DNA of 64,000 nucleotides from Shigella phage pSs-1, in sequence record KM501444; one strand, 5' to 3'. Of this stretch, positions 10,438 to 22,900 are shown in pieces (within the stretch, counting starts at the first letter, position 1; the number at the start of each line of letters is the position of its first letter). The notes beneath the pieces are model-generated. The model had not been told where the DNA came from. It saw only the letters and a program-made list of their open reading frames with translations, and did no database searches. The translations under genes were made by a program, and so were the position numbers.

Positions 10438-10809
10438 TCACTCAAATTTAATGGCTTGAAGAAGACTAATAATTCTCAAGCGACTTCTTTCATCTTTAAC
10501 CGTAAATGAAAGAGGGTCACCAGATTTCATAGTGATAGTGCATTCAAAATCAAAATCTTCGGGAACTTCTTCGAAGAAGTCAAATTCTTCATCATATATT
10601 AGAACATTACTCTGAAAACTGTGAAGAATTTTTCCATCATTTCCAGATGCTGTACTAATCATTGTAACGTTATTACCTTTCATATCTTCAACGATAAATT
10701 CGCTTGTAGATATTACGGCATTAATAGAACCATTCCTATAAATAGCAGAAAATAGATATTTCTTTTCTTCACCTTCGCGAATGCGATATTTCTTACCAAT
10801 TTTAAACAT
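10438..10809 (-). CDS. hypothetical protein (123 aa)
   Basis: ORF track. Confidence 0.45.
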   Translation of the reverse strand: MFKIGKKYRIREGEEKKYLFSAIYRNGSINAVISTSEFIVEDMKGNNVTMISTASGNDGKILHSFQSNVLIYDEEFDFFEEVPEDFDFECTITMKSGDPLSFTVKDERSRLRIISLLQAIKFE

Positions 10810-16517: not shown

Positions 16518-17264
16518 TTATCCTCGGATAAGTTTAAAAATTGAACAATTTAGCGGGTATCCTCTTTTTAGTTTAAGTTTATCAATAAAAGACAAGTTTT
16601 GATACCGCTCTACACCTTGAATAATTTTATCACACATATCATATTGCATTTCTGCTTCTGACAACTTTTTCACAGTTTTCCAATCCGAGCCTTTAAGAAG
16701 AACGTTCAATTTAACAACTTCAGTGCCTTCTGCTATACGAGAACCATCAATACGAGCTTTGAGTGATACAATCGTTAGCTTAACGTCAGAGGTTTGTTTT
16801 GATTTAGAAAGCTGAGAAATGTGTTCAATTCGGTTTTCACGTTTTTTCTGTATAGCTTTAATTTGATTATAAGTCTTTTTGATTTTAGCCCATTTCTTTT
16901 CATCTAAATTTAGTTTATGAACTTTTTTCGCAGATGAACGACCAATTCGCAAAGCAAATAAATCACGCTTTTCAATCAACTCTTCTAAAGTATAATCAGA
17001 ACGAAATGTATTATACTTTTTCTTTACTGCAATAACATTCCCTTTAATGTATCCAACGTTATTATCAAAACGTTCTAATGATAATTTCTCTCCTTCAATA
17101 CGATTATCAAAAGGTTCTCCTGAGTAAGCGCAAACTTTCTGGTCTAAAATGTTCTTAATGTAATTGAAGTCTAAGTTAAAATCTTTAGAACGTCTTTTAG
17201 CAGATGCCTGGGTATGCTCTAGACGACGTGTAATTTTACGAATTTGATTTTTAGACAGTTTCAT
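16518..17264 (-). CDS. srd: Srd-like protein (248 aa)
   Basis: size and synteny (between dda.1 and modA); basic/Lys-rich. Confidence 0.55.
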   Translation of the reverse strand: MKLSKNQIRKITRRLEHTQASAKRRSKDFNLDFNYIKNILDQKVCAYSGEPFDNRIEGEKLSLERFDNNVGYIKGNVIAVKKKYNTFRSDYTLEELIEKRDLFALRIGRSSAKKVHKLNLDEKKWAKIKKTYNQIKAIQKKRENRIEHISQLSKSKQTSDVKLTIVSLKARIDGSRIAEGTEVVKLNVLLKGSDWKTVKKLSEAEMQYDMCDKIIQGVERYQNLSFIDKLKLKRGYPLNCSIFKLIRG

Positions 17265-17290
17265 ATTTTTCTCACGGACGGGTTAACTAC

Positions 17291-17324
17291 TTATACTATA
17301 ACATTTTCACTTCAGCTTGTAAAC
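17291..17324 (-). promoter_or_regulatory. T4-type early promoter
   Basis: ttatactata...gtaaac. Confidence 0.5.
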
Positions 17325-17380
17325 AACTTTATGAAAAATGCTTTAAAACTTTCATGGTATAATGAATCTAAGTCCTTCCA

Positions 17381-17983
17381 TTATAGATTAAATCCTTCAA
17401 AATCAAGAGTATAGACAGTATATGTTGAATACTTTTTATACTCGTACCTATCCGCAATTCTAAATACGCTTCCAGCTGGTATCATTACTTCTTGTTCATC
17501 TGAAACTAATTCCATATTACGATAGCGATGGCTATCTGGAAACTTAAAACTTGGACTATATTCTTTACAGCGTAGAGCTTTTATAGCATACTCCTGGAAA
17601 TTAAACACCATAGGAGCTTTGAATTCAAAAATAACTTGCGTGTTGTATTCTAATCCAGAAGCAAAATGCAGAGCTATATTTTTATCATATGAAGCTGATA
17701 CTACTTTATCAAATGTAATAATATCAATTCCTTGATTTAACACCTGTTTAGTCTCAACTGGAACACCTCTCCAAAGAGGTTTATCGTTTGGAACCAAACG
17801 AGATTTGATTATTTCATTTAACCAAGAATGATCGTCTGGCTTATTAGTAATACAATGAATTAAAAGTTCAATTTCGGATAAATTAAATCCTTCAGAAAGT
17901 AATTCTTCACGAATAGAAGCACGCACCGATGCATCCATTGATTTGATTTTAAAATCTTTTAATTGCATTGCTGAATATTTCAT
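17381..17983 (-). CDS. modA: ADP-ribosyltransferase ModA
   Basis: 200 aa as T4 ModA; R (LWRG), S-x-S (VVSASYD), EQE motifs. Confidence 0.7.
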   Translation of the reverse strand: MKYSAMQLKDFKIKSMDASVRASIREELLSEGFNLSEIELLIHCITNKPDDHSWLNEIIKSRLVPNDKPLWRGVPVETKQVLNQGIDIITFDKVVSASYDKNIALHFASGLEYNTQVIFEFKAPMVFNFQEYAIKALRCKEYSPSFKFPDSHRYRNMELVSDEQEVMIPAGSVFRIADRYEYKKYSTYTVYTLDFEGFNL

Positions 17984-21042: not shown

Positions 21043-21073
21043 AATAAACTCCTTTATTGTTTAATTACAGGTG

Positions 21074-21081
21074 TATTTATA
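21074..21081 (-). promoter_or_regulatory. late promoter TATAAATA for soc
   Basis: plus tatttata = minus TATAAATA about 32 nt upstream of soc ATG. Confidence 0.55.
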
Positions 21082-21084
21082 TCA

Positions 21085-21603
21085 TCAATAACCTCGGTCT
21101 TGACGAGCGAAGTTTTCAGCATTTTTCAGATAATAAAGTTTAAAGATTTCTTCAGCCGTAAGACCGAGACCTTGGAACATGTTCAGAACGAAATGAAGAA
21201 TATCAATCATTTCGAATTTAATTTCCAACTGGTCTTGTGGAGATAAGTCAGTAATCAGAGTTTCACGACGTTCACCGTGTTGCGACTTCCAAGGCTTCCA
21301 TACAGCAGATGCATCTTTTTCGCCATTGCTCATACCACCAAGAGAAGTCAGAAGTTCGCGGAATTCATCATCAATATAATCTTTCTGATTACGCAGCCAA
21401 TCAACAACTTCACCTGCAGTAGCCAAATCATCAGGATGACGATTATATTCAGGTTTATCTTTAGCTAAACGAACCTGCAGAGATTTCTGCATATCAAGCA
21501 TAACCTGCAGCGGGTCTTTTTCATCACCGAGAATATCCCAGTATTCATTTTGAGCTTTATCAGCGCCTTCAATTAGTTGACTACATTCGTTAAAGTATGC
21601 CAT
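21085..21603 (-). CDS. 56: dCTP pyrophosphatase gp56 (MazG-like)
   Basis: 172 codons from ATG 21601-21603 (MAYFNECSQLIEG...), T4 gp56 is 171 aa; track start is an upstream alternative. Confidence 0.8.
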   Translation of the reverse strand: MAYFNECSQLIEGADKAQNEYWDILGDEKDPLQVMLDMQKSLQVRLAKDKPEYNRHPDDLATAGEVVDWLRNQKDYIDDEFRELLTSLGGMSNGEKDASAVWKPWKSQHGERRETLITDLSPQDQLEIKFEMIDILHFVLNMFQGLGLTAEEIFKLYYLKNAENFARQDRGY

Positions 21604-21674
21604 TATTTTTCCTTTCAATTCATGGGTTAGTAGATTAATTATACAATAAATATATAAAGCAATAAGGAGGACAT

Positions 21675-21875
21675 ATGGTACAAAAATTAATGGCACTTGT
21701 TAATGCCATAAAAGGTAATAAAAAACGTATAGCTTTTACTATTTCTGCTATGGTAGGAATTTTACTCTGGAATTTTGTTTTATCACCAATTGCTATTGCT
21801 CATGGTGTTAATATTCCGGTAATTACTCTTGATACATTCGTAGATTTAGCATTTGCTTTGGTTGGGTTAATTTAA
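21675..21875 (+). CDS. small plus-strand membrane protein (66 aa)
   Basis: only credible plus-strand ORF in window; AGGAGG SD 7 nt before ATG; hydrophobic; stop overlaps gene 61 stop tail-to-tail. Confidence 0.5.
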   Translation: MVQKLMALVNAIKGNKKRIAFTISAMVGILLWNFVLSPIAIAHGVNIPVITLDTFVDLAFALVGLI

Positions 21876-22900
21876 ATCTTAGCATATTTAGATAGCCGCA
21901 TTTTAGCCATCAACCCTTGAGCAATATTATTTTTCATATATTCCATAATTTGTTCAGGGGTTGCACCTTCCTTTCTAATCATATCATTAACATCTTTTGA
22001 TTTCCAGGGAGATTTGTCCCAAAACATAACCCTTTCTCCTGCATCAACTAATTTAGTCATTCGTTTAATAGTGTCAGGGTGACGAGGTTCATTATCTAAA
22101 ACCCATACACGTCTATCTTTAAATGGAACAATTTCTAGGTCTAATTGACCACCCGTAATAGCTATACCATTTTCAATAAAAAGTGAATCTATAGGTCCTT
22201 CTAGAACATATACATCACCATCTTTAACCCGTTCAACTCCATAGATTTTTGTTGCCTCAGGATAAGCTTTGATGGTGATATATTTTTGAGGAGCATCTTT
22301 CTTTAATGCACGTCCTTGAAAAGACTCGGCTTTTCCGTTAGCATTATAAATTGGAATAACAAGACGAGGCTCAGGTATTTCCTTTTTATATGTTCCTGGT
22401 GCTATGCTATTAACTAATTTAGGCCATTCGGTTGTAAACCAAAGATATTTCCATTTATCCTTTGGAATACAACGAGCTTTTACATATTTTATAATTGGAT
22501 GGTCTTCCGTCAGTTTATCTAATCTAATGCATGACGGAAGAGATTTAATTATTTTCTTCTCAGGTTGTTTAGGAAGTTCTTTAGGTTTTTCTACTGGACG
22601 ACTTTTACCTTTTTCTTTTCTTATTTCAAAGATATACTCACGATATAAATCAGGTTCAAACTCCTTTAAATATATTCCGATTGGTGCATGATAGTTACAG
22701 TTATAACAATGAATATTTCCTTCATTATTATCGCCATAATACCATCCACGGGCTTTATTTTGGTCGGTTTTTGAATCTCCACAAACAGGGCATCTAAACC
22801 GTAATTTAAAAGTTGAACTATTATTTACTTGTGCGAATTTAGGTAAATGAGCTAATGCACGGTATGCAAACTCATTATCAATCCAAGGTATTGATGACAT
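21872..22900 (-). CDS. 61: DNA primase gp61
   Basis: 342 aa as T4 gp61; N-terminal zinc ribbon CPVCGDS...CYNC; TOPRIM-like core. Confidence 0.9.
   Translation of the reverse strand: MSSIPWIDNEFAYRALAHLPKFAQVNNSSTFKLRFRCPVCGDSKTDQNKARGWYYGDNNEGNIHCYNCNYHAPIGIYLKEFEPDLYREYIFEIRKEKGKSRPVEKPKELPKQPEKKIIKSLPSCIRLDKLTEDHPIIKYVKARCIPKDKWKYLWFTTEWPKLVNSIAPGTYKKEIPEPRLVIPIYNANGKAESFQGRALKKDAPQKYITIKAYPEATKIYGVERVKDGDVYVLEGPIDSLFIENGIAITGGQLDLEIVPFKDRRVWVLDNEPRHPDTIKRMTKLVDAGERVMFWDKSPWKSKDVNDMIRKEGATPEQIMEYMKNNIAQGLMAKMRLSKYAKI

Follow-up and report, generated by a model that had tools for sequence, protein, structure and literature searches.

A conserved small gene running against primase in T4-like phages: a probable late membrane protein, independent of dam

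Introduction

What lies between genes 56 and 61 in a T4-like phage that has no dam gene there, and is the small gene read rightwards through that interval a substitute for dam, a chance open frame or something else? The question is raised by a 64-kb stretch of DNA from Shigella phage pSs-1 (record KM501444; hereafter 'the window', by which we mean the whole of this stretch), which is that of a Tequatrovirus. The closest complete genome, that of Escherichia phage EC121, shows a 99.1% match over 701 bases around the locus and ~96% identity to the window as a whole, and hundreds of other T4-like phages match the same 701 bases around the 56-61 locus at 95-99%. An earlier note on this DNA had drawn attention to the absence of dam and to a hydrophobic open reading frame (ORF) that was supposed to be there instead. 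We suggest that the ORF is a conserved gene for an inner-membrane protein of 65-66 residues, situated beside the primase gene, expressed late in infection and independent of dam, and we regard this reading, taken as a whole, as probably correct. The coding constraint, conservation, synteny, motif statistics and absence of dam set out below are matters of observation; from them we infer the late timing, the topology and any function.

The 56-61 interval

Gene 56, which determines dCTPase/dUTPase (MAYFNE...), forms the left flank of the interval, at 21085-21603 on the minus strand with its start at 21603. The right flank is gene 61, for DNA primase, at 21872-22900 on the same strand and ending at 21872. 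The gap between them (21604-21871) measures 268 bp, much as the earlier note had estimated (about 270 bp), and from it a plus-strand ORF of 66 codons, recognized by its open frame and translation, by a profile match and by its dN/dS, extends from 21675 to 21875 (stop codon included). The ORF is preceded by the Shine-Dalgarno sequence AGGAGG (21665-21670, plus strand, 4 nt ahead of the ATG), and a GGAG-type Shine-Dalgarno is present upstream of it in every lineage examined. It meets gene 61 tail to tail, the two stop codons overlapping (TAA at 21873-21875 for the ORF, 21872-21874 for primase). The description previously given of the ORF, as encoding a hydrophobic protein of 66 aa behind an AGGAGG and converging on gene 61 with overlapping stops, is therefore accurate in its coordinates and agrees with the hydropathy of the product.

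The ORF had also been called the single convincing plus-strand gene of the window, and its orientation unusual. Both judgements stand: no other plus-strand ORF of the window has at once an ATG start, a strong Shine-Dalgarno and an otherwise non-coding position, and its orientation is exceptional in a leftward-transcribed block of ~75 kb, the RefSeq annotation of EC121 having just one plus-strand CDS, this same ORF, in its first ~75 kb. An N-terminally extended version of gene 56 that would overlap the ORF (from a GTG at 21696, giving 203 aa) was considered and rejected, as the annotated orthologues examined all start at the ATG equivalent to 21603.

dam as cargo of a variable slot

That T4 carries dam between 56 and 61, as the earlier note had it, is confirmed by NC_000866 (dam at 16846-17625), and dam is indeed missing from this position in pSs-1, no Dam homologue being found by local tblastn in the 64-kb window (best E 0.7). 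For sequences outside the window we used EC121 as a proxy, at the ~96% identity mentioned above, and its complete genome likewise yielded no Dam homologue at E <= 1. However, the ORF is not present instead of dam: T4 and T2 have both, with the ORF in the same place beside primase, so it cannot be a replacement. Comparison with T4 and T2 thus upholds the difference from T4 in respect of dam, but the ORF is not peculiar to the dam-less locus.

Nor is the absence of dam in itself unusual. The dam-less arrangement is contiguous in 321 of the 556 matching phage records; T4-type Dam (>=90% identity) occurs in 182 phage records, against 498 for the ORF at the same threshold; and about two thirds of sequenced Tequatroviruses are without dam. 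In Mosigvirus, Gaprivervirus, Dhakavirus, Jiaodavirus and Kanagawavirus, too, dam is absent from the 56-61 locus. With a dam-less majority of records and these dam-less genera, to lack dam is the commoner condition, and was probably also the ancestral state. For pSs-1 it amounts to ordinary, common variation in gene content, separate from the ORF, which is a constant neighbour of primase independent of dam.

What varies is the segment between the gene 56 promoter and the ORF, which is a slot for differing cargo. The slot is empty in the window; in T4 it holds dam, in T2 dam together with a gene for 181 aa, in fPS-2 a homing endonuclease, and in Kanagawavirus CIP9 a gene for 95 aa. All of these, the T4 dam cassette included, are inserted at the same place, between the middle promoter of gene 56 and the small ORF, and dam is better seen as an optional occupant of it than as a fixed feature of T-even genomes. 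A second variable slot lies one gene to the left: in pSs-1, soc and gene 56 adjoin (21043-21084) with no segF between them, where T4 has the SegF homing endonuclease, and in vB_SsoM_113 the soc/56 junction holds two small ORFs. We also observed that GATC is 3.5-fold under-represented in the window (65 sites, compared with 229 ± 13 in dinucleotide-preserving shuffles), despite there being no Dam encoded either in it or in EC121.

A protein-coding gene conserved beside primase

It is almost certain that the ORF is a genuine gene coding for a protein. Pairwise comparisons give a dN/dS of 0.10-0.19 among members of Tequatrovirus, and for Mosigvirus the value is 0.13; the variable sites fall at first, second and third codon positions in numbers of 8, 2 and 13 (Tequatrovirus) and 7, 0 and 15 (Mosigvirus); and between genera, at distances at which synonymous sites are saturated, the proteins are still 48-68% identical. 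The contrary reading would make of it a frame open by chance, lying in a spacer that has been conserved only through its regulatory signals on the minus strand (the 3' UTR of primase, a terminator and the gene 56/oriA promoter), and such a reading could appeal to the terminator-like minus-strand hairpin inside the ORF, to the MotA-type promoter that abuts its Shine-Dalgarno, and to the lack of annotation in the T4 and T2 reference records. We think this very improbable. It is already contradicted by the substitution pattern, with dN/dS of 0.1-0.2 and changes mostly at third positions, and by the conservation of the protein where the DNA is saturated; moreover, the length, the Shine-Dalgarno and a set of invariant residues (W, N, P, G and P) have been kept in six genera, whereas the DNA of the hairpin region cannot be aligned base for base.

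The gene is a member of a family already known as hypothetical proteins, phrog_2024, to whose profile it matches over the full length (E 5.4e-31; residues 2-66 on positions 1-65 of 65), as do 11 of 11 diverse homologues tested. It is the orthologue of RB69ORF029w and RB32ORF030w, its position and strand being those found in RB69 and vB_SsoM_113 with no difference detected, and an identical protein has already been deposited (e.g. AEK12294.1). By tblastn the protein was found in 691 phage records, where its gene always abuts primase, and in 190 of them the identity is ~50%. At least six genera of Tevenvirinae (Tequatrovirus, Mosigvirus, Gaprivervirus, Dhakavirus, Jiaodavirus and Kanagawavirus) have it in the 56-61 interval, read against its neighbours and tail to tail with primase, and tblastn matches lie next to primase also in Salmonella phage S16 and Enterobacter phage Q7622. 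Dhakavirus, Jiaodavirus, Kanagawavirus and others have more divergent subtypes. In Gaprivervirus VR25 (locus L004, 2995-3401) there are two types of paralogue in tandem, 8 nt apart, with a late-promoter motif (see below) before the first only, and Dhakavirus MN04 (locus L027, 2526-2726) has only the second type, type A having been replaced by type B. Karamvirus EnA02 and Krischvirus KFS-EC do without the gene, which must therefore be dispensable for the T4-type life cycle.

Outside this group relatives are scarce. When 1.84 billion representative proteins were searched with a profile, seven matches came up, and, save for one protein of 1255 aa, all of these belonged to T-even phages, as whole proteins or as fragments, so that no remote family is known; a single-protein search for related loci gave just seven IMG/VR loci; and Foldseek comparison with viral models picked out, above noise, only the family members OE5505 and CIP9. 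Scans of diverse members against Pfam, NCBIfam and PADLOC gave no match, and a profile search of the PDB gave only noise (E > 0.5).

Interleaved signals on the two strands

The sequence ahead of the ORF is also the promoter region of gene 56. On the minus strand, a MotA box ATTGCTTTA (21655-21663) and a -10 element TATAAT (21638-21643) can be aligned with the mot-box and -10 of the T4 sequence X01416, and the alignment to T4 P(M)16.53, with which this middle promoter of gene 56 is homologous, continues through the conserved gene 56 leader downstream of them. As the transcript that covers gene 56 from P(M)16.53 is named the oriA primer in the T4 RefSeq record, it is very probable from this alignment that the oriA promoter has been retained in the window. 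The 11-nt spacer between MotA box and -10 contains, on the plus strand, the element AATAAATA (21645-21652), which we predict, from motif statistics and from its recurrence in other lineages, to be the core of a T4-type late promoter.

Late promoters of T4 have the consensus TATAAATA at -13 to -6; in most of the T4-like phages that have been compared, conservation of its T at -13 is poor (PMC1524935). AATAAATA agrees with it at seven of the eight positions, with A at -13, and stands 22 nt ahead of the ATG, so placed that transcription would be predicted to start at ~21658 and to give a leader of ~17 nt holding the AGGAGG. The published late-promoter HMM made no call before the RB69 orthologue, RB69ORF029w (Nolan et al., 2006).

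The heptamer ATAAATA is depleted seven-fold in the window (six copies on the two strands of the 64 kb, against 41.6 ± 6.2 expected from dinucleotide-preserving shuffles), and five of the six copies are 22-34 nt upstream of the ATG of an ORF. Apart from the one already considered, these are minus-strand elements that are likely late promoters of soc (21080-21074), of gene 49 (47336-47330), of an ORF for 70 aa upstream of rI (60928-60922) and of an ORF for 109 aa (4670-4664), gene 49 and the 109-aa ORF having the AATAAATA variant. Among the 21 heptamers of this composition, ATAAATA is the least frequent in the complete EC121 genome (54 copies, against 62-194), and 52% of its sites precede a Shine-Dalgarno and an ATG-started ORF, compared with 5-16% for the control heptamers. 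The only copy in the window that is not close to a gene start, on the plus strand at 10737-10744, is a perfect TATAAATA that falls within a gene of the minus strand and is followed by no ORF start; since it precedes no gene, it may be an antisense late promoter.

Comparison across lineages points the same way. A NATAAATA motif is found 12-23 nt ahead of the ATG in all lineages examined but one, in surroundings that do not align with each other: it takes the form GATAAATA in the T4/T2 type, AATAAATA in Mosigvirus, Dhakavirus and a metagenomic lineage (L015), and CATAAATA in Gaprivervirus, Jiaodavirus and Kanagawavirus, and the exception is another metagenomic lineage (L013), with TATTAATA in place of the late motif. 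The canonical T at -13 is seen in none of the lineages examined, A, G or C being there instead. The P(M)16.53 spacer of T4 is without a late motif, and GATAAATA is found beyond dam, 21 nt ahead of the ORF. To judge from these sequences, then, the late motif tracks the ORF and not the position.

The presence of the motif before the ORF, its depletion elsewhere and the nearness of the remaining copies to genes make gp55-dependent late expression of an N-in inner-membrane protein likely, and late expression of the gene, judged by itself, has in our view a good deal better than an even chance of being right. There are parallels in soc and gene 49, late genes of T4 that lie in early regions and have a TATAAATA-type element 22-34 nt before their starts (identical, in the case of gene 49, to AATAAATA). 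These two genes are read leftward like their neighbours, whereas the 66-aa gene, whose late promoter is predicted from the motif, is read rightward, and its promoter consequently overlaps a divergent middle promoter. A plus-strand promoter of the sigma-70 type was sought for the ORF and rejected, the only candidate being a weak 9/12 match inside gene 56.

Signals for the ending of transcription are likewise superimposed on the ORF. Within its codons 6-12, on the minus strand, is a hairpin of 8 bp (21690-21709; dG -8.4 kcal/mol) followed by a U-run, which is likely to be the terminator of gene 61; from its position, the 3' UTR of primase (~165 nt) would be antisense to almost the whole of the ORF. 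The annotation of fPS-2 has a middle promoter and a terminator predicted at the corresponding places. No plus-strand terminator was found within ~400 nt after the ORF, so a late rightward transcript would extend, as antisense RNA, over the end of gene 61. In Rfam, the only matches to 21400-22100 were sub-threshold ones to eukaryotic families.

Features of the predicted protein

All the positive charges of the protein, five in number, lie in residues 1-18, which have no negative charge and are predicted to form an amphipathic helix. They are followed by two hydrophobic stretches, residues 19-42 and 49-66, with a mean Kyte-Doolittle hydropathy of ~1.8-1.95 (15-residue windows), the second of which has two acidic residues near its start (D53 and D57) and ends the protein with ...LAFALVGLI. 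AlphaFold2 places helices at 2-14, 16-42 and 52-63 (mean pLDDT 74). Across 11 diverse members M1, W32, N33, P38, G44 and P48 are invariant, the W-N...P...G...P residues being at the end of the 19-42 helix and in the loop that follows. On these predictions it is very likely that the protein is inserted in a membrane and, by the positive-inside rule, its charged N-terminus should be cytoplasmic.

Our proposal for the gene as a whole may be put as follows. Rightward transcription would take place only late in infection, by gp55-RNA polymerase acting at AATAAATA, the late promoter being nested in the spacer of the middle promoter, MotA-dependent and leftward, that serves gene 56. The messenger, translated from its ~17-nt leader carrying AGGAGG, would contain the full complement of the ~165 nt that form the untranslated 3' tail of primase mRNA. 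In the product, an amphipathic, positively charged helix at the N-terminus would stay in the cytoplasm, the next helix would span the membrane and end on the periplasmic side with the invariant W-N...P...G...P motif, and a short hydrophobic helix would form the C-terminus; such a protein would most plausibly act at the cell envelope late in infection in some accessory function.

What might the function be?

Each of the specific functions that we have considered (lysis control, counter-defence and antisense control of primase) must, on sequence evidence, be rated as unlikely. One of them is that of a holin, pinholin or antiholin-like component of the lysis cassette, controlling the timing of lysis or lysis inhibition. 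The class II holins and pinholins, such as S68 of phage 21, are proteins of ~65-70 aa with two hydrophobic helices and a charged tail at the C-terminus. The 66-aa protein is like them in size and in its two helices, and, small as it is, is predicted to have at least one transmembrane domain by hydropathy, by AlphaFold2 and by the published segment 21-41 of the RB69 orthologue; the probable late promoter would also suit such a role. However, its charged segment is N-terminal and its C-terminus hydrophobic, the reverse of typical holins; there is no charged C-terminal tail; no sequence or profile similarity of the ORF to class II holins was found in Pfam, NCBIfam or the PDB; and it has no linkage to an endolysin or to a lysis cassette. 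In EC121 the locus is at 15.9 kb, far from the lysozyme-like glycoside hydrolase at 64.3 kb (where T4 has gene e), the spanins at 134.6 kb and the annotated holin at 159.6 kb. T4-type phages, moreover, already have holin T, and it counts further against a holin that, to our knowledge, the classical r loci do not map to the 56-61 locus. The homologue OE5505 is labelled 'Holin' in UniRef and BFVD, but without a stated basis, and a lysis function has been suggested for some novel ORFs of T4-like phages (Nolan et al., 2006). Altogether we think a lysis role improbable.

We would give about the same small weight to the idea of an accessory factor for host range or counter-defence, directed against some host system located in the membrane. 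The protein has evolved faster than primase (52-54% identity between Tequatrovirus and Mosigvirus, against 74%), it has given rise to tandem paralogues in Gaprivervirus and to the exchange of type A for type B in Dhakavirus, and its occurrence among related genera is patchy, all of which would be in keeping with such a role; yet there is no homology in PADLOC or elsewhere to support it, and the characterized counter-defence genes of T4 are mostly expressed early. Slightly less probable still is a role at the level of RNA, by which the convergent late antisense transcript would shut off primase mRNA, or the 3' UTR of primase would silence the ORF early in infection, much as in type I toxin-antitoxin systems. 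It is true that the primase transcript must traverse the whole ORF before reaching the hairpin at 21690-21709, that no plus-strand terminator follows the ORF within ~400 nt, and that the tail-to-tail arrangement has been kept in all genera examined. A type I system would call for a small hydrophobic peptide and an antisense RNA lying over its mRNA; a hydrophobic peptide is predicted here, and a complementary primase 3' UTR is deduced from the position of the terminator, while neither a dedicated gene for antisense RNA nor data on toxicity nor an Rfam match was found (the Rfam scan covering 21400-22100). Against any purely RNA-level role is the purifying selection on the protein, and the junction between the ORF and gene 61 ranges from a 14-nt overlap to an 18-nt gap, so that no fixed geometry of an RNA duplex has been conserved. 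A broader version of these ideas, in which we would be dealing with an overlooked late inner-membrane protein of T4 and most Tevenvirinae that has a real late role (in lysis timing, in envelope integrity or in a step of assembly at the membrane, for example), or else with convergent transcription that helps to switch off primase, is a little less doubtful than any one of them, though still on the unlikely side.

The gap in the T4 annotation

Annotation of the gene dates back to the genomes of RB69 and RB32. RB69ORF029w appears in a list of Nolan et al. (2006), who gave for it a predicted transmembrane segment at 21-41 and used the label 'ORFnnn' for ORFs without a match in T4; the RB69 gene has a name of this kind because of a gap in the T4 annotation at its orthologue. 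The T4 ORF is at 17738-17938 of NC_000866 (4239-4439 of locus L001), is 94% identical, and has the same Shine-Dalgarno and the same 4-nt overlap with 61, but it sits in the 310 bp between dam and 61 that the NC_000866.4 annotation leaves blank. In T2 (NC_054931; 1501-1701 of locus L020) the ORF, beside dam and the 181-aa gene, is likewise unannotated. The exact T4 protein sequence has no NCBI accession, and the sole source of it that we found was a set of automatic gene calls made on Logan assemblies. Our search of the literature found no paper mentioning the ORF, and no transcript or proteome data; we know of no phenotype in T4 genetics that was ever mapped to the 56-61 interval.

The interest of all this is modest. 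The RefSeq records of T4 and T2 omit a conserved gene that is annotated in hundreds of their relatives, and studies that start from the T4 gene list would miss it; being absent from the reference annotation, it has probably been absent also from the screens built on that annotation. It is the sole rightward gene in a leftward block of ~75 kb, and, with a putative late element inside the spacer of a MotA-dependent promoter, the locus offers a compact case of overlapping divergent promoters of different temporal classes. The understanding of phage biology would be changed only if the protein proves to have a phenotype. One T4 record, OL964745, from a mutant, does have an annotation at this place, in the form of a truncated 41-aa version of the ORF together with a split dam.
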